Positions 6,258 through 62,175 of a DNA stretch of 64,000 nt are shown one piece after another. Source of the stretch: Pseudomonadota bacterium (lineage in GTDB: Bacteria > Myxococcota_A > Bradymonadia > UBA4248); contig JAFRYG010000024.1 in assembly GCA_017441205.1 (NCBI GenBank), positions 6,046-70,045 on the forward strand. The letters run 5' to 3'. The first letter of the stretch is position 1. Every line of letters starts with the position of its first letter. The notes below the pieces were generated by a model, which saw only the letters and a program-made list of their open reading frames with translations, made no database searches and was not told the origin of the DNA. The position numbers and the translations under genes were made by a program.

Positions 6258-6440
6258 GAGACGTTCCATGGAACGTCTGTATATAATCAGATCGCCCGCA
6301 GTGCGAATCATCAGCGCCCTGCAGGGGCGCCGGCACACAGTGTAATCCGGGGGAAAGCCAACATATATGGGCACGTATGCCGCAGGCATAGTGCCCATGT
6401 GCGGCCGTATGGAATAGGCCGCACGGTTTGTGCGCAGCGA
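6258..6440. repeat. Composite palindromic element: a GACGTTCCATGGAACGTC hairpin followed by GC-rich CGTATG-core palindromes (GGGCACGTATGCCGCAGGCATAGTGCCC; GCGGCCGTATGGAATAGGCCGCA).
   Basis: Direct reading. The same ACGTTCCATGGAACGT palindrome recurs at 36.8 kb. Confidence 0.65.
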
Positions 6441-6529
6441 CGCTGCGGCGGCGCAAGCCAAACCACAAATTACCCTAAAAAAAGGCGAAAAAAAAGAGCT
6501 CCGAAGAGCTCTTCTTTATAATGAATGCC

Positions 6530-11261: not shown

Positions 11262-11561
11262 CACCTACCCCCTGTGCGGGAGTGCCCGCAACGCCCCGCA
11301 AACCTGAATCCCAACAATTTGCCTCAGTTCGCAAAAAGTCTGTTCACTTCACCTCCCAAATCTGATATTCATAAAAAGTATTCTCCGTCAAAACAAATAC
11401 ATGAACTCGCCATTACGCAATTATTTTGTTATGTTGCATAATGTATGGAAGTGAAGAAACGCAGTCTCTGCGCTTCATCGGACATAAACAGTCCATTTTT
11501 GGCGTTTGGTATTGTATCTGCGCCATGTTTGACGCATCACCTCAAGTACATCCGTATTCCC

Positions 11562-20602: not shown

Positions 20603-20907
20603 AACAATCCTGGAGCAACAATCAAACATCAAAACGAATGCCCGTTTCGAAATCATCCGTCCTGTAAATGGAAATCGTGGAACTGACAAAACCGGAAAAC
20701 CGGGATTCATCCGAATATCCGGAATTTCCGATCACTGTATGGTAATACTAACGATAAATGCGATGTTTTAGAAAGAAAAAATTGAGCAAACATCTTCCGG
20801 AATACGGTCTTTATACTTTACCCTAAAACGTGGATATAATATGATATAATCAGTTCGATATGCCAAAGACTGTCCTCCGCAAGGAAGGCGTGTCTTGAGT
20901 CTGCTCA

Positions 20908-32700: not shown

Positions 32701-33652
32701 CCATTACGGACGCACTGCGCCCATGTTCCAGTACACCCCCAACATCGATAAATACCATTCCGAACGCTTCAACATTAACGGCAACCCACAGCCCGATCTC
32801 ATCTGGCCCACATGTTCCTTCTCGTACATCGACGAAGATGGAAACATCCGGCAAATGGAAGGCACATTCACTTTTGCCCACGCGCTTGCACTGGAACCCG
32901 GTTACCACAAATACTTCCGCATTCTTCCCAATGAAGCATGGAATGATGAATTGATCGAAATCGGTGAATTCCTCAAAAATCCGTCTTTCGACAAACCGCA
33001 AATTCCATACATCTGGGGCGTCGTCGATTCTCAGCTTCGCAAATGCATCATGACGAGAGATGTCGCCAACGCCTGCATCGACAGGATGCAGCGCTGGAAA
33101 GCCCTCAAGGAACTCTCGCGCGTCACCCCCGTTCAAAACGACGCATTGTCACAGCATGCCTTCGATGATGTTTCCGAAAAACTCGAAGCATCCCGGCAAG
33201 CCTTCAGCGATGTTTCTGAAAAGCTCGAAACATCGCAGAATGTTCTGCGCAATACGGCCAATGTACTTACGCAATGTCTGCGCGAAATACACATCCAGAT
33301 CGAGAATTCCCCCGAGGAATCCTACGATCTCAACGAAGCCATGCGCGAAGAATCTGCATACATCGAAGGACTCGCTGAAGATTACAAGGACACACCTCAG
33401 GAAACATCAAAAGAAGAAATGACTGCAGCCCCGCAGGATACCCCCCCGGTCGCAGAGCAGCCGCAGCAGCCGGCACTTCCCTATATCGAAACGAACAGAT
33501 GCCTGAGCTGCGGTGCATGTGTCAGCATCAATGACAAAATCTTTGGCTTCAATGAAAACGAACAGGCCATTCTCATCAAACAGGATGCTACATGCGATGA
33601 ATGCCGCGAAGCCGCCGAAACATGCCCGGCTGAATGCATCCATGTTTCATAG
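29732..33652 (+). CDS. Large (1,306-aa) hypothetical cytoplasmic protein ending in a single-cluster [4Fe-4S] ferredoxin-like domain.
   Basis: The C-terminal ~55 aa read 'CLSCGACVSINDKIFGFNENEQAILIKQDATCDECREAAETCPAEC', a Cys pattern typical of ferredoxin (CxxCxxC...CP). The ~1,200-aa body has no motif I can name. The true start could be M at 29801. Confidence 0.45.
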   Translation: MQSMESFELLDKWFVRSTRRLISMTESLICQAGARPSIAEAEGFSILNQRSAALLSQDIPDLSLPATSSTLVCHRERHLLDALELKMPFELQAASAQEAVYHCLIAHDIAAKLNIPGLCSVDDTLAQRLEGARMPTREMIDMITPIGQTSFPNFIDENAIISIIRNSFERFNPLFSIDLNIFEAESIQDDGICFVTTGRYREHADILCKKLNEIGFSAGYLILKLIKPFPEHEITGLLHNQKHIIVLGEDDISEQSFILSGLHEIQTSFSVSWQLLYIPMQKESRFEKLASILNIAPGDLESAFDNDSVSSGFVIGAAPGGQMSRGLLFDLAAELSKMNGYSAFPTKSTHPLINSIGIEKTRSKHQGTEKRLIDLLFLSHPGLIDIQDILNDVAPHGIILVLGRSVEEASIWPLFSFDMKNTIEKKDISVYFLPGSLLNEYQMIDKYGSYVVHGALLGLFAKRAQENLDFQALPKNRILSGEAFNRLMIGSTSFSEVDRSVKQSDRFDPYFAPQINLPRMLPSVRNRTNSADWRSSVRNFFVRGQSTDAHHHPLPGLSIRPAALNPYLESLEREHFYPLIVTRITGNPKLQTQRLDETLRSKFGDLSDRPQAAQSLTQYIACAEKIADASLHITPAKTLLNEALESVHRLYPDFDTFIFSGIREFIAGLDSECHLVGLNPHTLLDLYVLSVRAARRSRMHDVGAEIRTLVTQLREKLRVDDAYGPFGMSESVLKDAFGPDATELLDTNEIAHDLQHRHCGHKQHDPERLTRMFDTLKTLESFLKSIESSDDLIFTYPPEIQVKTTYDRVRTVCHNEPIAVANGLFDAISQKHIEAFKAMRIARLDIDNAFDPNYHGDILEHFTWQDLSEDELRLLPVICIAETTAHLYAQLSPLSRLIRAGKPLDVLVFESTSKAMSTDPVTSQPSYDPGFSYLATAFREAFVAQSTLARPDHLVANLARMNQYLRPAITVVACPTWSWRLPARVQLEAAHYGRTAPMFQYTPNIDKYHSERFNINGNPQPDLIWPTCSFSYIDEDGNIRQMEGTFTFAHALALEPGYHKYFRILPNEAWNDELIEIGEFLKNPSFDKPQIPYIWGVVDSQLRKCIMTRDVANACIDRMQRWKALKELSRVTPVQNDALSQHAFDDVSEKLEASRQAFSDVSEKLETSQNVLRNTANVLTQCLREIHIQIENSPEESYDLNEAMREESAYIEGLAEDYKDTPQETSKEEMTAAPQDTPPVAEQPQQPALPYIETNRCLSCGACVSINDKIFGFNENEQAILIKQDATCDECREAAETCPAECIHVS

Positions 33653-39158: not shown

Positions 39159-40535
39159 ATGAAACTATCAACACTCATGCTCAGCTTCGCAGCGGCAATC
39201 TGTCTGGCGATGGGTTCACCTGCTGCCGCCGAGGAGGTCAATATGGCTCAGCAAACACAGGAAAATGTCAAAATTCCGTTCGAACAGTTCACGCTAGATA
39301 ACGGTCTGCGCGTATTTTTGCTGCGCGACAACTCCCTTCCCATCATCACCGTCAATCTGTGGTTCGACGTCGGCTCGAAGGACGAGCAGCCGGGCAGAAC
39401 CGGATTTGCGCATCTGTTCGAGCATCTGATGTTCATGGGAACAGAAAAAGTCCCCAACATCGATATTCTGCTCGAGAGCGGCGGCGGTTCGAACAATGCA
39501 TCCACGCGCGAGGATGTGACGAATTATTACACGGTAGCCCCCGAAAATATGCTCGAAACCGTGTTGTTCATTGAGGCCGACCGCTTTGCGCATCTGGCGG
39601 ATGCGATGACCCAGGAAAAACTCGATAAACAGCGGGATGTCGTGCTGAACGAACGCAGACAATCCTACGAAAATCAGCCCTATGGCAAACTGTGGCTCGA
39701 TTTGCCCACCGTCCTCTATCCCGAGGGCCATCCCTATGCCCATCCGGTCATCGGTTCCGTTCAGGATATCAAAAACGCAACGATCCAGGATGTCACTGAC
39801 TTTTTCAATACTTACTACGTCCCGGCCAATGCCTCGCTCGTCGTCGGAGGCGATTTCGATTCCGAACGAGCCAAGTCGCTCATCACCAAATATTTCGGTG
39901 CCATTCCCAAACGTCCAAAACCTGTCACCGCTGCAATTCCTCAGGTCACAGCACCGGTCAAAACCAGACATACCATTCAGGACGACGTCCAGGTGCCCAA
40001 ACTTACCCTTATCTGGCACTCCCCGGCGTTCATGGCCAAAGGCGATGCCGAACTCGATATTCTCTCCAATATTCTTTGCAAAGGCCAGACTTCGCGCCTC
40101 ATCAACCGCCTCGTCTACGAAAAGCAGCTGGCATCCAACGTTTCGTGCGGCCAGATCTCGGGACTTGCATCCGTGTTCATGATCGATGCCATGCCGCTGC
40201 CCGGCGTTTCGGTCGAAACGCTCGAAGCCGAAATTCTGGATGAACTCTCAAAGATTACCAGGGACGGCGTTTCCGAAGAGGAATTTGCCCGCACCAAAAA
40301 CGGCATCGAAACCGCATTTGTCAAGCAGCTCCAGTCCATCGGTTCGAGGGCCGACAGCTTCAACAGCTACGCATTCTACACCCACGATACGGACTTTCCC
40401 GCAGGTGATCTCAGACGTTACCGCCAGGCAACGACCGCGACGCTCATGGAAGTCATCAAACTCATCTTCAGCGATGATTCCCGCAGAAGCGCCCTCATTG
40501 TTACCCCCCGCACACCATCCGGAGAACAGCAATGA
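39159..40535 (+). CDS. Secreted M16-family zinc peptidase, active subunit (HxxEH).
   Basis: Signal peptide present. The inverted zinc motif 'HLFEHLMFMGTEK' and downstream Glu-containing region are typical of pitrilysin-family enzymes. Confidence 0.8.
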   Translation: MKLSTLMLSFAAAICLAMGSPAAAEEVNMAQQTQENVKIPFEQFTLDNGLRVFLLRDNSLPIITVNLWFDVGSKDEQPGRTGFAHLFEHLMFMGTEKVPNIDILLESGGGSNNASTREDVTNYYTVAPENMLETVLFIEADRFAHLADAMTQEKLDKQRDVVLNERRQSYENQPYGKLWLDLPTVLYPEGHPYAHPVIGSVQDIKNATIQDVTDFFNTYYVPANASLVVGGDFDSERAKSLITKYFGAIPKRPKPVTAAIPQVTAPVKTRHTIQDDVQVPKLTLIWHSPAFMAKGDAELDILSNILCKGQTSRLINRLVYEKQLASNVSCGQISGLASVFMIDAMPLPGVSVETLEAEILDELSKITRDGVSEEEFARTKNGIETAFVKQLQSIGSRADSFNSYAFYTHDTDFPAGDLRRYRQATTATLMEVIKLIFSDDSRRSALIVTPRTPSGEQQ

Positions 40536-42016
40536 AACCAGCCCATTGTCTCACTCTGATAATTGCAGCCGCATCGCTGTCGCTGAATGCATGTCAGTCC
40601 ACTTCTTCCGGCGAACAAACGCCCGTTTCCGCAGTGCAAAACACCATGAATACCGATTTCAGTCTTCCAGAAATTCCCCCCGCAAAACTCTTCCAGCATG
40701 CAACACCGGAAATCTTCAAACTCGATAACGGCATGGATGTCTGGTACGTACACAACCCGCTCATTCCGCTCATGAGCCTGAAAGTCGTATTCACCCAGGG
40801 CGCATCCATCGATCCTGCCGACAAATCCGGTCGTTCCTCCATGACCGCCATCCTGCTCAAGGAAGGTGCGAACGGAAAATCCGCGCAGCAGATATCCAAC
40901 GAAATTGAGTTCATCGGTGCCACGCTTTCCCCGGCCATCACTCAGGATGCCGCATCCATCACGCTCCAGTCCATGACCCAGTTCTTCGAACAGGGACTCG
41001 ATATTCTCGCCGATATCTGGCTCAAACCATCTTTTGAACAGAGCGCATTCGACCGCATCCAAAAAATCGTACTCAATGGCCTCAAACAACGCGAAGATGC
41101 GCCGACCGCCATCGCAAAGCTCGCCTCTAATCGGGACTATTTCGGCGAGGACCATCCCTACGCCAGATCCGCCGACGGCTACATCGACACCATCTCCGGC
41201 ATGTCCCTCAAAGACATTCAGGAAGCCTATCAGCAGATATTCACACCATCGCGCGCAGCATTTATCGCAGTCGGCAACATTCCGGCCGATGAACTCAAAA
41301 AAATGCTCAACAGCCGGTTCGGTTCCCTGAATATCACGCCGGTTGCCGACGAAATGCCCAAGCCAGAAGTCCCCGCGCCCGTCCGACGTCTCACCATCGT
41401 CGACAAACCCAACGCCCCGCAGACGGTCATCCGCATCTATCAGCCAGCCATCGTAGCCACCTCGCTCAAAACCCTCCCCTGGCAATTCATCAACATCCCG
41501 TTCGGCGGCAGCTTCACGAGCAGGCTCATGCAGAATATCCGCGAGGACAAAGGCTATTCCTACGGCGCAAATGCCGTCGTCGCGTCGCAGAAATTCGCAG
41601 GCGTCCTGCTCTCGACCTCGCAGGTCGCCACCGAAGTCACTGGCGCAGCGCTCAAGGAATTCCTCTATGAACTCGATCGCCTCCCCAAAGGAGACTTCAC
41701 GCAGGAAGAATTCGAACGCGCCCGCGAAACCTGGAAATCCGAACTCGTTCAGTCGTTCGAAACACAATCCGGAGTACTCGCAACCATCTCCAGCCTGTAT
41801 CTCAATCAAAAGCCCGTCGATGCCATCAATGCCTTCGCTCGAAGCCTCGACAGCTTTACGCTCGAACAGTTCAACGAAATCGCACGCGAATTCCCAACCA
41901 TCGATCAGATCAGCATCACGCTGGTCGGCGACAAAAACACCATCCTTGAACAAATTAAGGATATGGCTCTTCCGCAACCGACCTTCAGGGATCTCGAAGG
42001 CAAAATCATTCCGTAG
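40532..42016 (+). CDS. M16-family peptidase, non-catalytic partner subunit (lacks HxxEH).
   Basis: Overlaps the upstream gene by 4 nt. M16 fold-like with signal peptide, but no HxxEH motif. Confidence 0.7.
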   Translation: MKPAHCLTLIIAAASLSLNACQSTSSGEQTPVSAVQNTMNTDFSLPEIPPAKLFQHATPEIFKLDNGMDVWYVHNPLIPLMSLKVVFTQGASIDPADKSGRSSMTAILLKEGANGKSAQQISNEIEFIGATLSPAITQDAASITLQSMTQFFEQGLDILADIWLKPSFEQSAFDRIQKIVLNGLKQREDAPTAIAKLASNRDYFGEDHPYARSADGYIDTISGMSLKDIQEAYQQIFTPSRAAFIAVGNIPADELKKMLNSRFGSLNITPVADEMPKPEVPAPVRRLTIVDKPNAPQTVIRIYQPAIVATSLKTLPWQFINIPFGGSFTSRLMQNIREDKGYSYGANAVVASQKFAGVLLSTSQVATEVTGAALKEFLYELDRLPKGDFTQEEFERARETWKSELVQSFETQSGVLATISSLYLNQKPVDAINAFARSLDSFTLEQFNEIAREFPTIDQISITLVGDKNTILEQIKDMALPQPTFRDLEGKIIP

Positions 42017-46389: not shown

Positions 46390-48435
46390 ATGAAAGTAAA
46401 CAAATTAATTTTGGCGATATCGACTTTAAGTACGTGTACTTTCTTTGCCTGCGCTGACAGTGTGGATAATCCGCAGTCAGTTGCATGTGATCCCAATTCG
46501 ACCCTCTGCGCAGATAATGATTATCAATTGTCATGCGACGCAGCCGGTTCGGATTACAGCGTTCAGGTATGCGAGCACGGATGCAATTCAGAAACGAACA
46601 CATGCAATCCGGCTCCCGCCGACACGAATACGCATACGCCGCAAAATGCCCCCGGCATCGAAGTAAAGCCGGAATGCCAGGAAGACGATGCTTACTGCTC
46701 CAGCGAGGAAGTGTTAAAAAAATGCCTGGATGGCCGCTATTATGACTTCGAATGCACGGAAGACATGGTTTGTGATCCGGAGAGCCAGGCATGCGTGTTG
46801 GTGTCAGAACTCCCCGACAGCGCATGTGATTCCGATACATTTGAGCCTTCCTGCGATGGAAACATGCTCACAATTTGCCTGGACGATGTCATTGTGCGTC
46901 AGGCATGTGATTCCGCTGATTTGTGTGATGCCGAGCATTCCAGATGCCTGCTTCCCGAACCTCCTTCGTGCGGCGACTGCGCCGACGATGAATTCTGTGA
47001 CGAAAAATCACAGACCTGCATGCCGAAAGAATGTGATCTCGATGATGCGCCCAAATGCGTCAATGGACTCGCCTATAAGTCCTGCGATAACTGGCAGTAT
47101 AAAATCCATTCCTGCGGCGACGGATTAAAATGCAAATACGGTCAATGCTACGATCCCAATGGCGCTGAACCTCAGCCACAGCCAGATCCAGACCCTCAGC
47201 CTCCGGTCACGCCTCAACCCGATCCCGATGAGACTGGCACCAATGCCGGATATAATTGTCCTGCCGGACAGATCACCGTCTCCGACAGTGAACTGAAAAC
47301 ATTCTGCGTTCTGGATCCCAATGAACCTCTGGGTGAAGTCAAAGGAAAATCACAGTATTACTGCACGCCCGGTGCCATCGAAGGCCGCTACTGCCGCACT
47401 GTTCCCGCCGAGAATCCAGACTCCAGAGTTTCTATGAAACCTGGACAGAAATGTACCGAAGAACAGCTCAATCCCGCAAGCAACACGCTCAGAGTCCATA
47501 TCATCGACGTCGGACAGGGCGATTCCATCTGGATTCAGACCCCAACCGGACAGAATGTCCTCATCGACGGCGGCGATACCGGTGCCTTCGGAACCGCCGG
47601 CGGACCAATCGTCCACGATTATCTCACATTCCACGGCTTCCCCGCCGGCAGTGAATTCGACGCCGTATTCCTCACCCATCCGCACGCCGATCACTACGGC
47701 GGTCTGGCCAATATCTTCAATAAAGATAAGGATACGAAAAAAGTTAAATACGCCCACGGGATGAAAAATTACATCGATCCCATGGAACCTCAGACCACAG
47801 AAGCTGTCCCGACCGGATATATTAACTGGATTAAGAAAGTTCATAAATATCTGGACAGCAGCCACATCTATATGCCGGCTGAGGATATGTTCAGCACGAC
47901 CACGCCGATGCCCGAAGAGTTCTTTGGTCCCGAGGCCAAGGCCTACTTCATCAGAAGCACCAAAAAGCTTACAAACGCCGCAGGAAAAGCTGCGAATAAC
48001 AATCGCGCATCCATCATGTTCCAGCTCACGTATGCCGGACGTTCGTTCATGTTCACCGGTGATGCCGAAGTAGAACAGGAAGCAGAAGCTATCAGCAAAT
48101 CCCCGGATCATATCGCATCGAACTTCCTCAAGGTCTGCCATCACGGGTCGCCTACATCTTCGAGCGTAAAATTCCTCGATGCCGTTTGGAATTCTATCCC
48201 CAAGGCTGACCGGTATGCTCTGATTTCCAGCGGTCGCGGAAAATTCAGCGGCACATATATTCCCGCCGTCCCAATCCTCGACAGACTCATGTCATACCTG
48301 GAACCGGATCACCTCTACAGCACTTCCGTCGGTGACGACGATAAAACCGAGTCCGAAGCCTATCGCGATGACAACATCCTCATCGTCGTCAAACCCGATG
48401 GCGATTATTACGCCTGCTACGCAGGAACCAATTAA
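46390..48435 (+). CDS. Secreted lipoprotein: N-terminal Cys-rich repeat modules, a Pro-rich linker, and a C-terminal metallo-beta-lactamase fold (ComEC/Rec2-like).
   Basis: Start re-set to MKVNKLILAISTLSTCTFFACADS. At least four Cys-rich modules (e.g. 'CDPESQACV', 'CDEKSQTCMPKEC'). Linker PQPQPDPDPQPPVTPQPDPDE. MBL motifs 'IIDVGQGDSIWIQTPTGQNVLIDGG' and 'VFLTHPHADHYGG'. Confidence 0.65.
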   Translation: MKVNKLILAISTLSTCTFFACADSVDNPQSVACDPNSTLCADNDYQLSCDAAGSDYSVQVCEHGCNSETNTCNPAPADTNTHTPQNAPGIEVKPECQEDDAYCSSEEVLKKCLDGRYYDFECTEDMVCDPESQACVLVSELPDSACDSDTFEPSCDGNMLTICLDDVIVRQACDSADLCDAEHSRCLLPEPPSCGDCADDEFCDEKSQTCMPKECDLDDAPKCVNGLAYKSCDNWQYKIHSCGDGLKCKYGQCYDPNGAEPQPQPDPDPQPPVTPQPDPDETGTNAGYNCPAGQITVSDSELKTFCVLDPNEPLGEVKGKSQYYCTPGAIEGRYCRTVPAENPDSRVSMKPGQKCTEEQLNPASNTLRVHIIDVGQGDSIWIQTPTGQNVLIDGGDTGAFGTAGGPIVHDYLTFHGFPAGSEFDAVFLTHPHADHYGGLANIFNKDKDTKKVKYAHGMKNYIDPMEPQTTEAVPTGYINWIKKVHKYLDSSHIYMPAEDMFSTTTPMPEEFFGPEAKAYFIRSTKKLTNAAGKAANNNRASIMFQLTYAGRSFMFTGDAEVEQEAEAISKSPDHIASNFLKVCHHGSPTSSSVKFLDAVWNSIPKADRYALISSGRGKFSGTYIPAVPILDRLMSYLEPDHLYSTSVGDDDKTESEAYRDDNILIVVKPDGDYYACYAGTN

Positions 48436-48465: not shown

Positions 48466-48513
48466 AGCCCCTGTGGATATGACTTGTTCATATCCACAGG
48501 GGCTAAAATTTTG
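48466..48513. terminator. Rho-independent terminator.
   Basis: Hairpin AGCCCCTGTGGATATGA..TCATATCCACAGGGGCT followed by AAAATTTTG. Confidence 0.6.
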
Positions 48514-50220: not shown

Positions 50221-50436
50221 TTATTTATCGCCGTCCGACCCGACGCTGACGCTCGTATGGACTTCTTCTTCCTGCTGATAATATTCACTTGTATAATTGC
50301 ATGTGCGGACGATACCGAGAGCTTCCTCGATCTCCTTTGTCACTTCCATGCATTTTTTTCCCTTAAAACCAACGGGATGAATTTCGACAGAACCATCCGG
50401 ATTGATGGAAAACTCAATTGACTGTTTTGTTGCCAT
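50221..50436 (-). CDS. DUF2997-family small protein.
   Basis: The 71-aa sequence 'MATKQSIEFSINPDGSVEIHPVGFKGKKCMEVTKEIEEALGIV...TSEYYQQE' matches my recollection of DUF2997 consensus (small, conserved Cys, C-terminal acidic tail). Confidence 0.55.
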   Translation of the reverse strand: MATKQSIEFSINPDGSVEIHPVGFKGKKCMEVTKEIEEALGIVRTCNYTSEYYQQEEEVHTSVSVGSDGDK

Positions 50437-50468
50437 CTTATGTTCCTCTCTTCGCGATTAATTCTATT

Positions 50469-50864
50469 CTAGCCCCAGCGCGTTGCCGTCAGTTTGATGA
50501 CGTTCGTCACTTTGTCTTCTTCCATATCCAGGGTGTAGTGCTTCTTCTTCAGTTCCTTGACGACCTTGTGATAAGCATATCGCTGCTGGAGCTGATTGAC
50601 GAACTGCTGCTCATTGACGCCGCGGGTTGCTTCGACGCCCCACCAGTCGGCGAGAAGTTCACATCCATTTTCATTGATGCGCAAACCGACATCATATTTG
50701 CCGCTCACTTTGATAGAAATATCGGCTTTTTCGAGCTGCTGATTGTAACCACGAACATTGACGCCTTCTTCCGAATGTACGCACTCGTAGCCGAGATCTT
50801 TAATTGCCTCGAGGATACATTCAAGATCTTTCATCTTGGATTCAACGGTTGAAAAATGACTCAT
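50469..50864 (-). CDS. DUF1257-family protein (Ycf35-like).
   Basis: 'MSHFS..........L..L..A..DLG' at the N-terminus and 'QRYAYHKVV' near the C-terminus are characteristic of DUF1257/Ycf35 as I recall it. Lies 32 bp upstream of the DUF2997 gene. Confidence 0.55.
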   Translation of the reverse strand: MSHFSTVESKMKDLECILEAIKDLGYECVHSEEGVNVRGYNQQLEKADISIKVSGKYDVGLRINENGCELLADWWGVEATRGVNEQQFVNQLQQRYAYHKVVKELKKKHYTLDMEEDKVTNVIKLTATRWG

Positions 50865-50920
50865 ACTATTCCCTCAACTTAAATCAGTAAAAGTCCCGGC
50901 ATTTTGCCGGGACTGCTCAA

Positions 50921-52474
50921 CTACATCTCAAGATGGCGAATTTGCTTGTCTTCGCTGCTGCTGCCCTCTTCGTCCAGGCTTGCGCGGCGTGCACGGCTCT
51001 TGGCCCAGTCGCGCATGTAATCGATGCGTTCTTTCATCTGATAGGAAAGCGGAATGATTTCGTTGCAGCTGCGAACGACGCTGTCGGTATCGATATCCTT
51101 CTTGGCTTCATACGCATCGAACAGAGAAGAAACGATTGCCTGTTCAATTTCGGATCCCGAAAATCCCTGCGTTGCAGCGACGATGCGCGGAATATCAAAA
51201 TCCGCGACCTTTCGGTTCTTCTTGATGATGTGGATCTCAATGATCGTCTTGCGTTCTGCGGGGCTCGGAAGATCGACGAAGAAGATTTCGTCAAAACGGC
51301 CTTTACGAAGCAATTCCGGCGGAAGCATCGAAACATCGTTCGCCGTAGCGATGACGAATACCGGGCTCGTCTTTTCCTGAAGCCACGTAATAAAGGAACC
51401 GAAAACGCGTGCGCCCGTGCCGCCGTCCGTCGATCCGGACGACTTCGTTCCAGAAAATCCCTTCTCCAACTCATCCATCCACAGAATACACGGCGCGACG
51501 GCTTCTGCCGTTGCGATGGCTTTGCGCATGTTCTCTTCCGAAGAACCGACGAGGGATGAAAACACCTTGCCGACATCCAGACGAAGCAGCGGCATCTTCC
51601 ACAATGCACCGACGGATTTTGCAGTCAGTGACTTTCCGCAGCCCGGCAATCCGAGCAGCAGAATGCCCTTCGGCAATGGAAGTCCGAACTCACGGGCCTT
51701 CGAACTGAAGGCAAGATTACGCGTCTTGAGCCAGCTCTTCAGAATCTCGAGACCACCGATATCGCGAAGCTTCAAATCGGATTGATAGAACTCGAGCAGA
51801 CCATTCTTGCGGATGAGGTTTTTCTTTTCATCGACGATCGTCTCGATATCGAAATCGTGTTTGATGATCAGGCTCTTCGAGAACACGTTCGAGGCTTCGA
51901 CTGCCGTCAGACCGAGAGCTGCTTCGACGACTTTTTCGCGGAAATACGGATCATTGCGTACCTGCTGGCAGAGATCATCCGGAACGCTCTTGAGTACCTG
52001 GAGAACCAGCTCATTGATAACGGTTCGGTTCGGGAGATCATAATCGATCACGCTGACTTCCTTTTCGAGTTCCGCAGGAAGTTTGAATGTCGGGCTCAGA
52101 AGCAGCACGTGCTTCTTGTAGCGACTCGTTTTGAACTCGCGGCTCAGATCACGAAGTCGGCGCGTAACCTGAGGATCCGACAAATACGGATGAAAATCCC
52201 TTAGCACGAACACGGCATCATTTTCGTAACGGAAAATATGCTCCATTGCGCGCTGTGGATCGCGGATATCGTTAAATGTATCGCCATCGCCCCCCTGGAA
52301 CCCTTCCGTACACGACCAGGTCACAAAACGACGATTACGGCGTTCACAAATTTTGCGAAGATTATTTTCAACACGCTCTTCTTCCGTACTCGTGACATAT
52401 AAAAGAGGATACCTTGCACGAATCAGATACTCAATTTCCTCTTCTGAAGAAACATTCGCTCGAATTCCTTCCAT
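50921..52474 (-). CDS. AAA+ ATPase with an ~270-aa N-terminal domain (Ycf46-like).
   Basis: Walker A 'LLLGLPGCGKSLTAKSV'; Walker B 'ILWMDELEK'; sensor/Arg-finger region 'VIATANDVSMLPPELLRKGRFDEIFFVDLP'. A single AAA module at the C-terminus. Confidence 0.85.
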   Translation of the reverse strand: MEGIRANVSSEEEIEYLIRARYPLLYVTSTEEERVENNLRKICERRNRRFVTWSCTEGFQGGDGDTFNDIRDPQRAMEHIFRYENDAVFVLRDFHPYLSDPQVTRRLRDLSREFKTSRYKKHVLLLSPTFKLPAELEKEVSVIDYDLPNRTVINELVLQVLKSVPDDLCQQVRNDPYFREKVVEAALGLTAVEASNVFSKSLIIKHDFDIETIVDEKKNLIRKNGLLEFYQSDLKLRDIGGLEILKSWLKTRNLAFSSKAREFGLPLPKGILLLGLPGCGKSLTAKSVGALWKMPLLRLDVGKVFSSLVGSSEENMRKAIATAEAVAPCILWMDELEKGFSGTKSSGSTDGGTGARVFGSFITWLQEKTSPVFVIATANDVSMLPPELLRKGRFDEIFFVDLPSPAERKTIIEIHIIKKNRKVADFDIPRIVAATQGFSGSEIEQAIVSSLFDAYEAKKDIDTDSVVRSCNEIIPLSYQMKERIDYMRDWAKSRARRASLDEEGSSSEDKQIRHLEM

Positions 52475-52584: not shown

Positions 52585-54618
52585 CTACATCTGCAGTACG
52601 CTGCGCATATCCTTAAGCTTGTCCTTGATCTCCGCAAGCGAGTTCTGACCGGAATCCAGTGAACTGGCGATATCCTCAAAAATAATTTTGGGATCGTAAT
52701 CCTTCAGAACGTTCTCGAGGCGCGTTTTTTCCTGGCCCACGAGCTTAGAAACATCGATCTTCACATAAGCCACGAACACGCGCTGAAGATCCGTAATGCT
52801 TGCATCGAGCATCTCCAAATCGCTGCGCCACTGGCTCACGACATCATTGATGTCGGAATACAGCCCCTTGACGCGTTCAAGCAGGCCACTGTCTGCGCCG
52901 CCCGCCGACTCGCGAAGCGAGGCAATTTGTGCTTCAGCATCGCGAAGCGATTTTTCAAGTGCGGCCACGCGTTCACTGCTGTCGCCGGACTGCATGGATT
53001 CCAGCTCGTGAATGCGATCCCTGAGCCGCTGCACATCCTCATCCGAAGCACTTTCTGCAGCGCTCAGCTGTTTCTGCAGCAACTCCGCCTCACTCGTCTT
53101 GCGGTTCAGACTTTCCCTCACCTGTGCAAGTTCCTGGAGCAATGCTGCACTGTCTCCGCCGCCTTTTGAACGCAGTGAATCCTGCAGCTGCCGAATCTCG
53201 CGGGCGCGATCATTCAGATTACCCTTGAGCTCGCTGAACATGACCTCATGCTGTTCGACGACCTTCTTCATATCGCGGTTCCGGCGCTGGCTCTCTTCGA
53301 GAGATGCATTCAGCGTATCGACATTTTCTTTCAGGCGCTCGACATTCTCGCGCTCTTCCTTGCACGAAAACTGAGCAATATCGAGTTCGCGCTGCAGCTC
53401 TTCCAGGAGGTGATTCTTCTTCGTCAGCTGAACCTTCAAATCCGCTATCGCTGTCTCCGCATTCGATGTCGCCATCCCCTTCGATTCCAGCGTTTCCTTC
53501 AGCGTCTGAAGCTCCATCTTCAGGGATTCCGCCTCATCCTGCGATGTAACGAGATCGCGGCGGCACTCCTGGTACTGCTCTTTCTGGTGATCGAGCTGTT
53601 CCTTGAGCTTGTCGATCATATCCTTCAGACCGGTCACGACCGTTTCATGATATTCATTCCGACGCTCATAATCCGTCAGAATCTGATCGCGCTCATCCAG
53701 CTTTTCCTGAAGTTCCTTGATCACATCGCCATTGCCGGCGCCGGCGCGAGCTTCCTCAAGATCGTGCTTCAGCTTGGCATTCTCTTCCTGAAGTCTGCTG
53801 ACTTCATCCGATGCCGCACCGGAATTATAGGGTGCCCGGGATCGCTGCTGCCCCGATACCGGTTGCTGCGATGACATCGGCTGCTGCATACCCATCGGCT
53901 GCTGCATACCCATTGGCTGCTGCTGGGGTGACATCGGCTGCTGCATACCCATTGGCTGCTGCTGGGGCGACATCGGCTGCTGCATACCCATCGGCTGCTG
54001 CATGCCCATCGGCTGCTGAGCAGCCATCGCCTGCTGGGATGCCATCGGCTGCTGCATACCCATCGGCTGCTGCATACCCATCGGCTGCTGGGGTGACATC
54101 GGCTGCTGCATACCCATTGCGCCCTGCTGAACCGGCCTGCCCATCGGACTGCGATTGTCCTGCTGGTAATTGCCGCGGTTCGAAACCGGGGCCGCCGAAT
54201 AGCCACCGCGATTGTACTGCTGCTGGTACATCGCCGGATTCTGCATCATTCCTGGTGCCATCGGAATCTGATCTGCCATCCGGGGAACATTATCCGCACC
54301 GCCGTCTCCAACGACGCGTATCGAAAAATTCCCGCACAACAGCTCACTGCCCACGAACAGCTCAAGCACCTCTCCCGGCTGAAGCCGCATTCCGTCTACT
54401 TTCGTGCCATTCGTCGGCCTGCTGTTCGGCGGATCCTGTACAAAAAGTTTCCCATCCCGCCAGGTCACCATCGCATGAACTCGGGATACCGACGCGTTCG
54501 TCGTCTGAACACCGCAATCCGGATTGCGGCCTATCATAACGACATTCTTGCGCTCATTGAGCTCTACAGCTTTCTCCCAACCATTTTGATCGTTGTATAC
54601 TAACTTTACCAAGGACAC
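52585..54618 (-). CDS. FHA-domain protein with a Q/M/P-rich low-complexity tract and a ~350-aa coiled coil.
   Basis: The N-terminal ~105 aa form an FHA domain ('VMIGRNPDCGVQTTNASVSRVHAMVTWRDGKLFVQDPPNSRPTNGTKVDG'). About 20 'QQPMGM' repeats follow. The C-terminal half is heptad-rich (LQEENAKLKHDLEE...). Confidence 0.75.
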   Translation of the reverse strand: MSLVKLVYNDQNGWEKAVELNERKNVVMIGRNPDCGVQTTNASVSRVHAMVTWRDGKLFVQDPPNSRPTNGTKVDGMRLQPGEVLELFVGSELLCGNFSIRVVGDGGADNVPRMADQIPMAPGMMQNPAMYQQQYNRGGYSAAPVSNRGNYQQDNRSPMGRPVQQGAMGMQQPMSPQQPMGMQQPMGMQQPMASQQAMAAQQPMGMQQPMGMQQPMSPQQQPMGMQQPMSPQQQPMGMQQPMGMQQPMSSQQPVSGQQRSRAPYNSGAASDEVSRLQEENAKLKHDLEEARAGAGNGDVIKELQEKLDERDQILTDYERRNEYHETVVTGLKDMIDKLKEQLDHQKEQYQECRRDLVTSQDEAESLKMELQTLKETLESKGMATSNAETAIADLKVQLTKKNHLLEELQRELDIAQFSCKEERENVERLKENVDTLNASLEESQRRNRDMKKVVEQHEVMFSELKGNLNDRAREIRQLQDSLRSKGGGDSAALLQELAQVRESLNRKTSEAELLQKQLSAAESASDEDVQRLRDRIHELESMQSGDSSERVAALEKSLRDAEAQIASLRESAGGADSGLLERVKGLYSDINDVVSQWRSDLEMLDASITDLQRVFVAYVKIDVSKLVGQEKTRLENVLKDYDPKIIFEDIASSLDSGQNSLAEIKDKLKDMRSVLQM

Positions 54619-57121: not shown

Positions 57122-59026
57122 TTAAAATCCAATATCAAAGTCTCCGCCAAAATCCATCCAATCTGGAATTTTGGTACACGTATCCCAGTCAATATTATCA
57201 AGTCTATCTAATACAGTTAAGATATCAGCGCCAAGATCTTCAGCCCACTCCTCTACACATTCCTCTCCGAGATCATCATAGTCTTCCGCATTTCCACCTT
57301 CACTGACAAATATACCTATGAGTTTTGAGTCACCCGACTCTAAGTCAGCACAGGTCTTAAAGGTTTTCATTACATTCAGGAATTCCGCCTTGGTTTGCGG
57401 ATAATTATCACATATATTGCCGGAAACTTGTTTCGGCACGCAGGCGCCAGACTGCGGATCGCACGCTTGGTTTTCATTGCATATCGAAGGATCCTGAACG
57501 CACGACGAGGAAACTTGTTTCGGCACGCAGGCGCCAGACTGCGGATCGCACGCTTCGTCGCTCTTGCAAATCGAAGGATCCTGAATGCAGGTAACATTTC
57601 CGACGCCCCCTTTCGGCACGCAGGCGCCAGACTGCTGATCGCACACTTCGTCGCTCTTGCAAATCGAAGGATCCTGAATGCAGGTAACATTTCCGACGCC
57701 CCCTTTCGGCACGCAGACGCCAAACACCTTGTTGCATTCCTCATCGGCACCGCATTGACTGCTATCCGAACATGCCTTGCCCTCGCCGATCACGACATCT
57801 TCAAATACGCCATCGAAGTACTCGCACTTAAACACGTTAAATGCATTCGGATCGCCTTCAATATTAATCGAAATCCCTTCTATCCACTTATCGCCGCAGG
57901 CATCCTGGATGGCATCCCAATTACTCTCATTGATACCCTCGCTCGCCGCAATAGGTAAAATGGCATCCAGCTTGTTATCGAGATCCTGGCATGATGATGC
58001 ATTAAGAATCGCATTCACCAGTGCTTCCTTGGTCTTGGGATAAGCATTACAGTCAATACTTGCAGGCTGCTGACTTGCCTGACACTGGCCATTCACGCAC
58101 TGACCGCCATTGCAAATCGAAGGATCCTCTGTGCAGGTTTTGGCCGGCTGTTCCGGATTATTGGGAATACAGAATCCCTTGCTGCATGTCGCATCGGCAC
58201 CACAGTTCAGAACAGAACATGCGTCCACACACTCACCACTTGAGCAGAACTCGCCGACATTACATACCTTCTTCGCGCAGGGATCCAGATTCATTCCATA
58301 AATGCACTTTACTTTGATTTCTTCAAGCTTGAGTTCAAAAGCCGCACGATCTGCCTCAGGTACATTCTTGAACCGCCACTCTTCGACACATTCATCAAAT
58401 GAACATGGTACGTCGCTTGCGTCAGGACATGTACTTTCCATCAAATCGAGATACTGACTCTCTATGGGATAGCGTGCATTGATCTCCCCCAGACTCTTCG
58501 ATAATGATTCGCACTCCACCTCAGATGCCATGACGACTCTATACACTTCGTCATATAATTCCTGAATCTTCAAACCACTCGGAATGGAACATTCGGTGCC
58601 GACTTCTTTTACCGCTTCTTCTTTTCCTTCCTTGTACCAGTCAAAACTCGTAACCTCCTGATTGCTCTCGCATTTGGAAATATTCTGCTGCAGAATTGCA
58701 ATCTGTGCCTTCAGATTGGGATCATTATAATTGTCGCCAGACAACAGCAAACCATTCGATTTTTTCAAAACCTCTGCAACAATATCACACCATGCTTTGC
58801 TGCCGGGTTCCGCTGTTGCGCCTGCTTTTGCAACAGCAACCGACACTTCCGACACCATTGCCGCAGCCTCCGATTCCGATGGAGCAGACGTGAGCTTCTT
58901 ACCGACATCCTTGGGGCTGGCAGTTCCACCCGAACCACCACCACCTTCGTTCACTTCCGTCTCAGAGACATCACACGAAAACATGCAAAGTGACAACAAA
59001 ATCGACAATATGGTTAACTTCTTCAT
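57122..59026 (-). CDS. Cys-rich repeat lipoprotein with tandem near-identical ~30-aa modules.
   Basis: Lipoprotein signal (LSLCMFSCDVSE). The modules read 'CVPKGGVGNVTCIQDPSICKSDE(V/A)CD(Q/P)QSGA' x2, followed by two diverged copies. Many further Cys pairs. The module is shared with the 46390..48435 protein. Confidence 0.6.
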   Translation of the reverse strand: MKKLTILSILLSLCMFSCDVSETEVNEGGGGSGGTASPKDVGKKLTSAPSESEAAAMVSEVSVAVAKAGATAEPGSKAWCDIVAEVLKKSNGLLLSGDNYNDPNLKAQIAILQQNISKCESNQEVTSFDWYKEGKEEAVKEVGTECSIPSGLKIQELYDEVYRVVMASEVECESLSKSLGEINARYPIESQYLDLMESTCPDASDVPCSFDECVEEWRFKNVPEADRAAFELKLEEIKVKCIYGMNLDPCAKKVCNVGEFCSSGECVDACSVLNCGADATCSKGFCIPNNPEQPAKTCTEDPSICNGGQCVNGQCQASQQPASIDCNAYPKTKEALVNAILNASSCQDLDNKLDAILPIAASEGINESNWDAIQDACGDKWIEGISINIEGDPNAFNVFKCEYFDGVFEDVVIGEGKACSDSSQCGADEECNKVFGVCVPKGGVGNVTCIQDPSICKSDEVCDQQSGACVPKGGVGNVTCIQDPSICKSDEACDPQSGACVPKQVSSSCVQDPSICNENQACDPQSGACVPKQVSGNICDNYPQTKAEFLNVMKTFKTCADLESGDSKLIGIFVSEGGNAEDYDDLGEECVEEWAEDLGADILTVLDRLDNIDWDTCTKIPDWMDFGGDFDIGF

Positions 59027-59584
59027 TCTCTATCTCCAAATCTGCTCACGAAACCCCAAACGCCACCCATGACAATTTTGTTTCATGAAAAATAATAACA
59101 AAAACATTGCCGTTCAAAGCACGGCATGGGAGTAATCAGCATTATCCGTGCCATCGTCAAATTTTTTAAAATCGGCATTTTCACGCTCCCGGATATGCTT
59201 TCCTGATGCTCCGATCTATGGCTTAATGCCTGGACTTCATGAATATAACGACAACTTCCGGAACAAAAAAGTGTGCTCAAGCTCAAACTTTCTCACCGTA
59301 TCACATAAGCGGCAAGCTGTAACTATTCAGCCTAACGTCTGACTGTTTTACGGATTTGCTCAGGCCTAATGGTCTCGCTGTTTTTTTAATCGTGAGCAAC
59401 GTTAGTTGCGAACAAATCCGTTTGTTAAAAATGACAAACACACCATGGCTGAACAGTTACGGCAAGCCTTCTCAAAACTGAATAACGCCTTTGCATTTCA
59501 ACACTTTTTGACTTACGATAGGCGTAGCAGATCTTGCAGTATGACGCTGTGTATTTTTCGCATTATGACAAAAGGATCATAATC

Positions 59585-59995
59585 ATGATAAAAGACTTCC
59601 TGCTGACCATCGCAAAATCCATAAAAAAACCTGCCATGCTCATTGGCGTCACCGGCTTCAGTACGACTGTCGCCGCATGCTACGGACCTCCGCCGGCACC
59701 GCCTGAGTCCGAACTCAATGCCGCTTCCGAAAGAATGCTGATTCAATGCGTCGATGGTACAAAAACCGACAAAGACTGCCAGTACGGATGCAAAAATAGC
59801 ACATGCCTCCAGAAATTCGGCAATGCCGGCGATCCCTGCGACGCAAACCTCTATGTCGAAACATGCGTCAATGATGCACAATCCGAACAAACCGCAAATA
59901 CAAAACGCGCATGCGTCGACGGACATATCGCAGAAGTCCCGTGCCCGAATTGCACGAACAATCAGGATCAGATCTCCTGCCAGACTTCAGAATAA
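59585..59995 (+). CDS. Small Cys-rich secreted protein or lipoprotein.
   Basis: Start re-set to MIKDFLL...VAACYG. Twelve Cys in ~110 mature residues. Confidence 0.4.
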   Translation: MIKDFLLTIAKSIKKPAMLIGVTGFSTTVAACYGPPPAPPESELNAASERMLIQCVDGTKTDKDCQYGCKNSTCLQKFGNAGDPCDANLYVETCVNDAQSEQTANTKRACVDGHIAEVPCPNCTNNQDQISCQTSE

Positions 59996-60039: not shown

Positions 60040-62175
60040 TTACAACCCCTTCAGCCGCCTCACCAAAGCCACAAACTCTGCACGATATTCATCGCTGTCG
60101 AGCGAAGATATCCCCTTGAGCTGCCCAAGAATGCTGTCGTATGTCGCCGTCCCCTTGAACGGTGAATTATTCAGTATCATGGCCGTCGCAGCAACCGCCG
60201 ATGCAAAATTCATATTGTTGCTCATGGTACTGCGGACCGATGATGCATTCACAGGCCAACTCAGCTCCGTGCTCACATCGCCATCCGGCTTCTTATAACG
60301 AAGCTTCACTGTCGCATATTCGTCGCTCTTGACGGCCTCGACTTTCTGGTACTTCGAAGATGGTTCCGGCACTTCTACGGCTGAACCCGTTTCTACAATT
60401 TCATACAGAATTGTAACCTGATGCCCGGCACCGACCTCGCCGCCGTCTTTCTTATCGTCCGCAAAATCCTCGGCATTCAGCTTGCGCGTCTCATACCCAA
60501 TCTGACGATACCCCTTGATCTTGCCGGGGTTAAAGTCGACCTGGAATTTCACGTCTTTGGCCGCAACAAATACCGTCGACATAAACTCATCCACGAGCAC
60601 TCGGCGCCCTTCGCGCAATGTATCTATATAATGATAACTGCCATTGCCGTAGTCCGCCAGCGCTTCCAAACGGTTGTCCTTGTAATTCCCCATGCCGACG
60701 CCCAAAACCGACAGGAAAATCCCGCTTGCGCGCTTCTTTTCTATCAATGACTTCAGCTCATTCGTATTCGAAATACCGACGTTCAGGTCGCCGTCCGTTC
60801 CCATGATGATTCTGTTGTTGCCGCCTTTGATATAGTTCTTTTTGGCAACCGCATACGCCATCTTGATGCCGGCTTCGCCGTTCGTCACGCCGTCCGCATC
60901 AAACAGCGTCAGAGCCTTCATGATCGTCGCATGATGATCCCCGGGCACGCCATCGATAATGAATCGCTCGGCTCCGGAATAGGTCACAATCGAAATCCTG
61001 TCCTGCGCCGTCAGCTTCGGCAGCATCGATATGATCGACGCCTTGATCAGCGCCAGTCTGTCGTGACCGCGCATCGATCCCGATATGTCCAGCAAAAATA
61101 CAATATTCGATGCCGGACGTTCCTCCATATTCAGTTCGCGGGTTTTCGCACCCACCAGCATCAGCTTTGTATCCTTGTTCCACGGACACCCCGCGATCTC
61201 TGTCGTGACCGAAAATGGCTCGCCGGCTTTCGGATTCGGATAATCGTACTTAAAGTAATTGATCATCTCCTCGACGCGCAGTCCCTGATTCCTCGGTGCC
61301 CTGCCTTCGTTGATCGCCCGACGGAAAACACCATAGGACGCCGTATCCACATCCGCCCCAAACGTCGACAACGGATTCGCCGCTGTATTGATAAACCGGT
61401 TCGGATCATACTGGCTGTACTCGTCCGTATTCATTGCAGTCGGCGGCAAATCTGCTTCTGCTATCCCGCCGGTAGCAAACACATTACCCCTGCCTATGTT
61501 ATACTTTTCTGCGGCCTTAGGGGCTGCAGCCTTCATAGCAGGAGCTTCTGCGGATGCATCCATCATCATCATAGGCGCCGATTTTGCCTCAGTGCTGCGC
61601 CCACCTGACGGCTTGGATACTTTTTTGACCTTGACATTCCCCCTCCTGGCCCCAGACTGGTCATACATACGGTTGCTGGTATGACCTTCCAGAAAATCCA
61701 GGTCGCCGGCTTCGATATCGGCCAGTGCTTTGGCGAGCTTCTTCTCCACTTCCTTGGTACGTTCGGCCTTGGGATCGCCCGGCTTAAGCTCAACTTCAGG
61801 CAATTTGATATCCCATTTGTCGTCCGTAAGCGGCGCATACTCCGGCTGCTTCACATCCGATGCCTTCAGATCCGGTTCCACCGGTGCATTCGGGTCAGTC
61901 ACGGGCGTCGGTTCGGGCTTCGCCTCCGGCTGCACATCCCGGGCTGCAATCAGCTCACCATCCTTGCCATTCTCCACGACTTCCGGCGCCGGCAACGCAA
62001 CGTCGGAATCCTCACCTCCCGCCTGCTCCCCAGCCGTCCCAGGTTCCGATGAAGGTGCAGTCTCTGCTGCAGGCTCCTGCGGAACGGACGACGGGGAATT
62101 CACATCCTTCACACAACCTGTGGCAAACGCACATACAACAGATACCAATACAGCAATACCAGGTTTCGTATTCAT
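60040..62175 (-). CDS. von Willebrand factor A domain lipoprotein (YfbK-like architecture).
   Basis: Lipoprotein signal (FATGCVKD). MIDAS 'LLDISGSM' plus 'TDGDLN'. The C-terminal region is typical of YfbK-type vWA proteins. A Pro/Glu/Ala-rich N-terminal linker. Confidence 0.75.
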   Translation of the reverse strand: MNTKPGIAVLVSVVCAFATGCVKDVNSPSSVPQEPAAETAPSSEPGTAGEQAGGEDSDVALPAPEVVENGKDGELIAARDVQPEAKPEPTPVTDPNAPVEPDLKASDVKQPEYAPLTDDKWDIKLPEVELKPGDPKAERTKEVEKKLAKALADIEAGDLDFLEGHTSNRMYDQSGARRGNVKVKKVSKPSGGRSTEAKSAPMMMMDASAEAPAMKAAAPKAAEKYNIGRGNVFATGGIAEADLPPTAMNTDEYSQYDPNRFINTAANPLSTFGADVDTASYGVFRRAINEGRAPRNQGLRVEEMINYFKYDYPNPKAGEPFSVTTEIAGCPWNKDTKLMLVGAKTRELNMEERPASNIVFLLDISGSMRGHDRLALIKASIISMLPKLTAQDRISIVTYSGAERFIIDGVPGDHHATIMKALTLFDADGVTNGEAGIKMAYAVAKKNYIKGGNNRIIMGTDGDLNVGISNTNELKSLIEKKRASGIFLSVLGVGMGNYKDNRLEALADYGNGSYHYIDTLREGRRVLVDEFMSTVFVAAKDVKFQVDFNPGKIKGYRQIGYETRKLNAEDFADDKKDGGEVGAGHQVTILYEIVETGSAVEVPEPSSKYQKVEAVKSDEYATVKLRYKKPDGDVSTELSWPVNASSVRSTMSNNMNFASAVAATAMILNNSPFKGTATYDSILGQLKGISSLDSDEYRAEFVALVRRLKGL

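Follow-up and report, generated by a model that had tools for sequence, protein, structure and literature searches.

Here we describe a bacterial gene whose product joins a lipoprotein signal peptide and a Cys-rich stalk to a metallo-beta-lactamase (MBL) domain of the type found at the C-terminus of ComEC. The gene occupies 46390..48435 on the forward strand of a DNA stretch of 64,000 nucleotides, called the window below, which was taken from contig JAFRYG010000024.1 (positions 6,046 to 70,045) of assembly GCA_017441205.1, a genome deposited as Pseudomonadota bacterium and placed by GTDB in Myxococcota_A; Bradymonadia; UBA4248. All coordinates are window positions, and every part of this gene named below lies on the forward strand. 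An earlier reading made from the DNA letters alone (the sequence-only reading) had described the protein as a lipoprotein with Cys-rich modules, a Pro-rich linker and a ComEC-like MBL domain, and the Pfam search, the lipobox pattern, the Cys pattern and the structural model all agree with that architecture.

The frame is uninterrupted on translation, with 681 codons and a stop. Longer frames are possible from a GTG at 46285 or an ATG at 46336, and this extension only precedes the signal peptide; family relatives begin at a Met that aligns with 46390, and the gene call of one relative, P0001, starts at the equivalent of ATG 46336. P0001 is 97% identical to the protein studied here and was found on two independent metagenome contigs (L080 and L081), with the same neighbours in common, namely a 1393-aa TPR gene upstream and DUF4491, hypothetical, DUF2997, DUF1257 and AAA genes downstream. 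Given the intact frame, the 97%-identical copy on two contigs and the identical neighbours, we regard the gene as real and its boundaries as those first proposed. A perfect hairpin of 17-18 bp (48466..48504, assigned to neither strand) lies 30 nt past the stop codon, between convergent genes, and is likely a bidirectional terminator. The possibility that the gene is a fragment of comEC was rejected: no Competence (PF03772) or OB (DUF4131) domain was found in or around the gene, its product begins with a signal peptide of its own, the TPR gene lies upstream, and the homologues are built in the same way.

Residues 1-21 (46390..46452) read as a lipoprotein signal peptide, MKVNKLILAISTLSTCTFFAC followed by ADS, with the basic n-region MKVNK, the hydrophobic core LILAISTLSTCTFFA and the lipobox TFFA-C21. 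The n-region, the h-region and a lipobox Cys within the first ~40 residues are all present, as in lipoproteins, and the signal peptide is the sole hydrophobic stretch of the protein. A PROSITE-type lipobox rule is satisfied here and in 50 of 55 family members, with most exceptions looking N-terminally truncated, and C21 is conserved in at least 90% of the family alignment. The protein would be exported through the Sec pathway, cleaved by signal peptidase II and anchored by lipid at Cys21, and the Ala at position +2 would direct it to the outer membrane under the E. coli sorting rule. Lipoprotein sorting in M. xanthus follows a +2 Lys rule. Lipidation and cellular location are predicted from these signals, and the Cys count implies residence in an oxidising compartment.

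The catalytic head fills residues 363-681 (47476..48432), where Pfam, NCBIfam, PDB sequence and fold matches indicate an MBL-fold phosphodiesterase domain of the ComEC type. In the scan with MBL hidden Markov models (HMMs) that had been proposed along with the original description, Lactamase_B (E 1e-10) was the sole Pfam domain assigned to the protein, and ComEC_Rec2 (TIGR00361) was the best partial NCBIfam match (E 1e-22), at 79.9 bits against a curated whole-protein cut-off of 190 and with only the model positions of the C-terminal domain matched. The best PDB sequence matches are all ComEC; the single sequence matches 9ic4 at E 5e-15, and a profile of 33 family members matches six ComEC structures at E 1e-23 to 2e-13. 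The full-length AlphaFold 2 model (mean predicted local distance difference test, pLDDT, 83) has the alpha-beta/beta-alpha MBL fold, and its nearest structural neighbour is the C-terminal domain of ComEC, Foldseek placing 9ic4 first (E 4e-16). The second-closest fold is that of pneumococcal Pce, which has a similar catalytic-domain fold. The beta-CASP insertion domain known from RNase J, CPSF73 and Artemis/SNM1 is not present. Anti-phage MBL systems (Avs1a and 6A-MBL) were considered and set aside, as their NCBIfam matches were weak, partial and far under the cut-offs, and the Avs1a and 6A-MBL proteins are cytoplasmic.

The active site corresponds residue by residue to that of the nuclease domain of M. 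glycerini ComEC (9ic4). Counted from the alignment, D541, H598, D600, D602, H603, D700, H725 and S728 of 9ic4 match D373, H430, H432, D434, H435, D558, H584 and S587. Motif II, H430-P-H432-A-D434-H435 (47677..47694), equals H598, D600, D602 and H603 of the M. glycerini domain; motif IV contributes Asp558 within FTGD (48061..48063; D700 in 9ic4); and motif V, H584-H585-G-S587 within KVCHHGS (48139..48150), equals H725 and S728. The sequence-only reading had noted an intact HxHxDH, which is the HPHADH at 430-435, and the metal ligands hold up on careful alignment to 9ic4 and within the family. All mapped catalytic residues are invariant or at least 90% conserved across the 33 family members, and the family keeps every one of the ComEC-specific motifs IDVGQGD, N-x-x-S, FTGD and KVxHHGS. 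In the M. glycerini domain (BLACT-Mg) the catalytic residues were mutated, and the metal-ligand mutants were virtually inactive (PMC12455585).

The protein shares with the MBL domains of ComEC/Rec2 (9ic4 of M. glycerini and the C-terminal domain of M. thermoacetica ComEC) the motifs IDVGQGD, H-x-[HD]-x-D-H, N-x-x-S, TGD and HHGS, all catalytic residues that have been probed experimentally, and, by prediction, an extracytoplasmic position. Motif II reads HPHADH here and HPDADH in the Moorella and Bacillus enzymes, HPHADH being found in other ComECs as well. Unlike ComEC/Rec2, the protein has neither the channel (PF03772) nor the OB domain (DUF4131), and in their place carries a predicted lipid anchor and a Cys-rich stalk. 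It also differs by ~60 extra residues in insertions, by a Cys-containing neck of 76 residues, and by C583 (inside KVCHHGS) and C676, extra Cys residues conserved in the MBL domain of the family. The neck, residues 287-362 (47248..47475), is specific to the family and conserved in all relatives; G287, N289, C290, C306, C325, C335, R336, Q353, C355 and P362 are invariant in the family alignment, and a Pfam search of this 5-Cys segment gave no match.

A different kind of MBL hydrolase (lactonase, beta-lactamase, sulfatase or glyoxalase-type), a non-catalytic MBL, or an adhesin that has merely kept the fold would account for the fact that Pfam gives only the generic Lactamase_B assignment, and the family profile does show weak matches to arylsulfatase and organophosphorus hydrolases (E 0.003-0.02). 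However, these matches are about 20 orders of magnitude weaker than those to ComEC, the ComEC-specific motifs are all conserved, and the catalytic residues are invariant in a domain under purifying selection. We consider this explanation very unlikely.

On balance, we think it more likely than not that the protein is an extracytoplasmic binuclear-metal phosphodiesterase, presumably a DNase, at the cell surface or in the periplasm. The suggestion of a surface or secreted nuclease made by the sequence-only reading remains the best single interpretation, with DNA as the expected substrate. Membership in the ComEC nuclease clade and the nucleic-acid-related domains of relatives make DNA the most likely substrate: lamin-tail domains (LTD) occur in paralogues, and HhH and Excalibur domains in stand-alone relatives further away. 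The isolated C-terminal domain of Moorella ComEC is a Mn2+-dependent phosphodiesterase and DNase (PMC8579336), and the ComEC domain cuts both as an endonuclease and as a 5'->3' exonuclease (PMC12455585). By analogy, H430, H432, D434, H435, D558 and H584 may hold two divalent metal ions (Mn2+ or Zn2+), with Asp434 acting as general base to a bridging hydroxide that would attack the phosphodiester bond. The same analogy with the isolated ComEC C-terminal domain underlies the metals, the substrate and the biological role proposed here, the last being degradation of extracellular or periplasmic DNA, for nutrient scavenging or predation by a gut-dwelling myxobacterium.

Between the predicted lipid anchor and the head lies a stalk with a module region at residues 32-256, whose 30 Cys fall between residues 33 and 253 and group into four 6-Cys modules (M1, M2, M3 and M5) and one 4-Cys mini-module (M4). 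The 6-Cys modules are of ~43 residues, follow the pattern C-x6-8-C-x7-8-C-x9-11-C-x3-5-C-x4-6-C, and in the AlphaFold models each form a sheet of three strands and then a hairpin. None of the Cys of the five modules varies among the long-form relatives (P0001-P0005). M1 (residues 32-74; 46483..46611), defined by its Cys pattern and by the modelled sheet and hairpin, is followed by a Pro/Thr-rich linker (residues 75-94; 46612..46671) with pLDDT below 50 at 77-91 and predicted disorder. M2 (residues 95-138; 46672..46803) ends in the motif CTEDMVCDPESQACVL, to which we return below, and M3 (residues 145-189; 46822..46956) ends in CDSADLCDAEHSRCLL. The mini-module M4 (residues 193-213, 21 residues, SCGDCADDEFCDEKSQTCMPK; 46966..47028) is followed by M5 (residues 214-256; 47029..47157), the best conserved module of the long-form subfamily, with pLDDT 87-90 in the N-terminal model. 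A second, Pro-rich linker (residues 257-286, beginning PQPQPDPDPQPPVTPQPDPDE; 47158..47247) has pLDDT below 50 at 264-282, and Pro makes up 11 of the 31 residues at 256-286. In the model that we favour, the protein would carry an acidic, disulfide-locked stalk of ~240 residues with up to 15 disulfides, as predicted from the Cys pattern, built of beta-hairpin modules with one flexible Pro/Thr linker within it. The Pro-rich linker would join this stalk to the head, that is, to the 5-Cys neck and the ComEC-type MBL domain at its far end, and the stalk with its two flexible linkers would hold the head away from the membrane.

Comparison with the 97%-identical strain shows that the two parts of the protein evolve differently. 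Codon differences number 21 synonymous and 17 nonsynonymous; of these, 18 and 6, respectively, fall in residues 281-681, and 3 and 11 in residues 1-280 (Fisher p 0.002). Constraint is stronger on the catalytic part; in the stalk, positions other than Cys change faster. The first loop of M2 (residues 99-110; 46684..46719) holds a cluster of five substitutions and a one-codon indel, behind which may lie either diversifying selection on a binding loop or a tract of micro-recombination. A diversity-generating retroelement was considered as the source of this cluster and is unlikely, since the changes are not adenine-specific.

No Pfam family matched the Cys-rich modules. Searched against 1.84 billion representative proteins, the module region matched eight proteins at E <= 1e-3, including the family member P0002, several prokaryotic Cys-repeat proteins (P0122-P0126), a fungal CBM19-like repeat protein (P0121) and a protein with four CBM14 domains (P0127). 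In a Foldseek search of PDB, the N-terminal model (pLDDT 73) matched EHEP best (E 5e-5), which we take to be a protein built of peritrophin-type modules. Single modules compared with chitotriosidase CBM14, tachycitin and Der p 23 reached Foldseek probabilities of 0.8-0.97 at non-significant E values (0.3-1.5), hhalign gave 63% probability against CBM19-like repeats and 19% against CBM14, and the Pfam models gave no match for CBM_19 and a score of 14.4 bits, on M2 only, for CBM_14 (cut-off 22.1). The modules resemble CBM14 (peritrophin-A) and CBM19 in being small, tandem 6-Cys beta-hairpin units, their fold and profile matches to these families being weak, and differ in Cys spacing and in that no Pfam model passes its threshold. 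Together, these results amount to no more than a hint at small modules that bind glycans.

This likeness bears on a second explanation, in which the protein is a cell-wall phosphodiesterase similar to Pce (CbpE) of S. pneumoniae (2bib, 1wra), cleaving phosphorylcholine, teichoic acid or phosphoglycan linkages on the surface polymers of other microbes, with Cys-rich modules that would bind glycans and attach it to the walls of prey or fungal cells. Pce is reported to be the closest structural homologue of the ComEC domain (PMC12455585). It is likewise a modular surface protein with a binuclear MBL phosphodiesterase head and a surface-binding module, as is predicted here. The peritrophin/CBM14-type matches of the N-terminal model, the fungal CBM19-like and CBM14 proteins among the non-family matches, the hhalign result for CBM19-like repeats, an acidic stalk that is unfavourable for DNA binding and the family-specific inserts around the MBL core would all suit such an enzyme. 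However, the profiles place the domain with ComEC and not with Pce, whose match (1wra, E 0.45) has no stretch passing alone. In Pce the choline-binding repeats follow the enzyme, in contrast to the N-terminal position of the Cys-rich modules, and Pfam found no choline-binding repeats in our protein. Moreover, the likeness to CBM families is weak, with CBM_14 below its cut-off and restricted to one module and single-module Foldseek matches lacking significance, and some paralogues carry LTD instead of glycan-binding domains. A Pce-like function is a minority view in our assessment, and we give it a limited share of belief.

Several observations weigh against a lipid-anchored DNase. Insertions (residues 440-530 and 640-662) that follow motif II and precede the last strands near the C-terminus set the family apart from generic ComEC-like domains, as do extra invariant residues (W381, Y461-D463-P464, Y477, W480, R608, R616, D649, K652 and R659-D660-D661-N662), and these could define a different substrate pocket. 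The module region is strongly acidic (net charge -38, pI 4.05), and the MBL domain itself has a net charge of -11; as a discriminator of DNA binding among MBL domains, net charge proved uninformative, generic ComEC-like domains being equally acidic (median -12 in both sets). The modelled fold is close to that of Pce. On its own, the ComEC domain is a poor DNA binder that relies on the OB fold (PMC12455585), and Pfam found no OB, HhH or LTD domain in the protein. Neighbour clustering and tblastn against related loci revealed no conserved neighbourhood pointing to DNA metabolism, and, as far as the sequence goes, the protein may sit on the periplasmic face or at the cell surface. Finally, in the literature searched we found neither activity data for any stand-alone ComEC-type MBL protein nor an experimentally characterised member of the stand-alone ComEC-like "MBL fold metallo-hydrolase" proteins. 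Hvo_1477 of Haloferax, a candidate for such a member, was discarded because it is a thermonuclease and not an MBL protein.

The family comprises ~54 clusters, which share the architecture and are 40-56% identical to the protein described here across the neck and MBL domain. Its scores extend down to E 1e-89, and a large gap, broken by one fragment at 1e-41, sets it off from a generic stand-alone group that starts at 1e-23. In a scan covering one genome per species, the 19 closest loci came from uncultured Myxococcota, Myxococcales, Bradymonadales or "Proteobacteria" metagenome-assembled genomes (MAGs) and from one bin titled Bacteroidaceae, with up to two family loci per MAG; several bear sample labels suggestive of a gut or rumen origin (roe deer omasum, dairy cattle colon). 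The N-terminal heads vary widely, from short Cys-containing leaders and the five-module stalk of the subgroup studied here to LTD (P0012, P0017, P0043 and P0051), trypsin (P0017) and CPL1-like Cys modules (P0014 and P0018).

More distant, stand-alone ComEC-like proteins are known from Chloroflexota, Firmicutes, Elusimicrobiota, Acidobacteriota and others. Like our protein, they have an MBL domain without a channel and are soluble or anchored with predicted export; unlike it, they show only 30-36% identity to it and do not share the neck, the insertions, the lipobox and the Cys modules that the clade adds. The sequence-only reading had started from the premise that this MBL domain normally sits within the uptake channel, which would make a stand-alone form unusual. 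This was overstated and needs correcting, as the channel domain PF03772 was found in only 4 of the best 120 of 816 database matches (P0096, P0107, P0112 and P0119), and among Competence-domain proteins only 52% carry Lactamase_B, with many gains and losses, a gain in Deltaproteobacteria being reported in Desulfuromonadales (PMC6299819). Most of the other best matches are stand-alone proteins 370-600 aa long, with LTD, Excalibur, HhH, SH3 and similar domains as fusion partners, and their sources often label them "competence protein ComEC". Myxococcus sp. RHSTA-1-4 (L052, 8744..12486), a cultivable myxobacterium, has two MBL genes of the stand-alone kind in tandem (794 and 453 aa), ~31% identical to the MBL domain described here, and so offers distant relatives of our protein that could serve for genetics.

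A functional analogy, and no more than that, connects the proposed DNase with surface-anchored DNases that bacteria use to scavenge extracellular DNA or to control biofilms, including the lipoprotein thermonucleases YokF/YncB of B. subtilis, ExeM of Shewanella and staphylococcal Nuc (reviewed in PMC3929857). The cell biology proposed for our protein matches theirs, with a nuclease anchored by lipid or to the wall acting outside the cytoplasm on extracellular DNA, and they differ in having unrelated catalytic folds (SNase and EEP).

The genomic setting of the family bears on a third explanation. Short-form members in 12 loci (L002-L004, L006-L011, L013, L016 and L019) have tsaD directly downstream and thrS or a LysM-SLT lytic transglycosylase gene upstream on the opposite strand, and in L004 tsaD is flanked on either side by a family copy. 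This tsaD/thrS slot is housekeeping synteny and not a functional link. In this third explanation, the family would be a separate periplasmic strand-degrading lipoprotein that serves Myxococcota whose ComEC lacks an MBL domain, acting in trans for competence, with our protein as a stalked paralogue. Such a role would agree with the ComEC-type sequence and fold of the domain, with the partial distribution of Lactamase_B among Competence-domain proteins (PMC6299819), with the conserved core-genome position of the short forms at 12 MAG loci, which an old housekeeping-like gene would be expected to have, and with the precedent of EndA, a separate nuclease in S. pneumoniae (PMC5031224). However, genomes have several paralogues whose N-terminal heads differ greatly, a trypsin fusion among them, and this fits an arsenal of secreted hydrolases better than a single machine part. 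Furthermore, no com genes were found near the gene or its relatives, the gene lies outside the tsaD slot, and it is difficult to see how a protein with a stalk of 240 residues would dock on a channel in the inner membrane. We regard a competence function of this protein as quite improbable.

Two more speculative proposals can be taken together, and even jointly we find them unlikely. According to the first, a single neck and MBL head is placed on interchangeable stalks to form an arsenal specific to gut and rumen Myxococcota, in which CBM-like Cys, lamin-tail or trypsin stalks would dock the enzyme during predation onto prey or fungal cell walls, or onto DNA. According to the second, the tsaD-adjacent short form would be a trans-acting ComEC nuclease, the missing strand-degrading nuclease for a ComEC without its own MBL domain.

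Domain and similarity searches found no paralogue of the gene and no comEC in the rest of the window, and in neighbour clustering its subgroup had no conserved gene neighbours and lay outside the tsaD slot. When 13 window neighbours were compared by tblastn with 79 related loci in search of an operon partner, a single match was obtained (E 6e-6), between a VWA protein (60040..62175) and L009, where the match is distant from the MBL gene and non-syntenic.

The sequence-only reading had also connected the Cys-rich modules with a second lipoprotein of the window, encoded at 57122..59026 on the reverse strand (634 aa, 46 Cys, no Pfam match). A pattern defined after inspection of the data, C-x5-C-[DN]-x5-C-[VMLI]-[PL], occurs three times in the MBL protein, four times in the second lipoprotein and nowhere else in a six-frame translation of the window. 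The four copies in the latter, C-x5-C-[DN]-x5-C-V-P, lie at 57434..57754 on the reverse strand and come partly from a 93-bp tandem repeat; M4 is the copy in our protein closest to them. An HMM built from the repeats of the second lipoprotein alone scored 10.7 bits at residues 122-136 of the MBL protein and 8.3 bits at residues 197-213, and 10.7 bits was reached by none of 1000 composition-preserving shuffles. Homology of the whole module was rejected, with BLAST at E 0.2 and no match of the 6-Cys module HMM in the second lipoprotein or in any other open reading frame of the window. The connection therefore stands for a short Cys motif and fails for the module: whole-protein similarity being non-significant, what the two proteins share is a disulfide hairpin motif of 15-17 residues.

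The 93-bp repeat itself (3.2 copies, 57431..57722) encodes GGVGNVTCIQDPSICKSDE[VA]CD[QP]QSGACVPK units, and its recent expansion suggests that the second lipoprotein is a fast-evolving surface protein. A further Cys-rich protein of 153 aa with a lipobox-like N-terminus is encoded at 59534..59995 on the forward strand; its "C..G...C.YGC...TC" segments are reminiscent of M1, and it was not picked up by the module HMM.

The rest of the window encodes, according to Pfam, a Ser/Thr kinase, FHA proteins, TPR giants, serpins and transglutaminase-like proteins, a content consistent with a myxobacterium-like chromosome. Upstream of the TPR gene, at approximately 39159..42016, lie two M16 peptidase genes; L081 has the same arrangement, and in L080 both are swapped for pentapeptide-repeat and other genes, which marks a strain-level rearrangement boundary upstream of the TPR-MBL pair. 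At 50221..52474 on the reverse strand, genes for DUF2997 (71 aa), DUF1257 (131 aa) and an AAA ATPase (517 aa) form a compact trio that is kept in both L080 and L081. In the FHA-domain protein encoded at 52585..54618 on the reverse strand, tandem repeats of 18 and 54 nt (53860..54117) give rise to a long tract rich in Met, Gln and Pro (MGMQQP-type), after which come ~350 residues of coiled coil.

Two full-length bacterial serpins (1811..3082, forward strand, and 19274..20710, reverse strand; Pfam E 1e-70 and 1e-99) have giant transglutaminase-core/DUF3857 proteins nearby (3145..4422, reverse strand, and 11445..15323, forward strand), and this cluster gives the window an unusual density of protease-control genes. 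A 514-aa protein with an Endonuclease/Exonuclease/phosphatase (EEP) domain, encoded at 4924..6468 on the reverse strand, may be a second nuclease or phosphatase of the window. The gene at 29732..33652 on the forward strand encodes 1306 aa with an odd architecture, the sole Pfam match being a C-terminal single-cluster 4Fe-4S ferredoxin domain (Fer4_13).

Exported stand-alone ComEC-type MBL proteins are a kind known from databases and uncharacterised, within which the present clade is distinguished by its lipobox, neck, insertions and Cys-module stalk, with close members found only in uncultured Myxococcota-type MAGs. Such proteins are abundant in genomes and metagenomes and are routinely mis-annotated as "competence protein ComEC"; the gene described here should not be counted as evidence of natural competence. 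The clade is clean and well conserved, its export signal is clear and its active site intact, and it is a reasonable first biochemical target of its class. If either the arsenal of interchangeable stalks or the trans-acting short-form nuclease were true, it would give this very large class of stand-alone ComEC-like MBL proteins its first physiological role. If the protein is a surface DNase, as we favour, it would bear on the use of prey DNA by putative gut predators and on the turnover of extracellular DNA in the gut.

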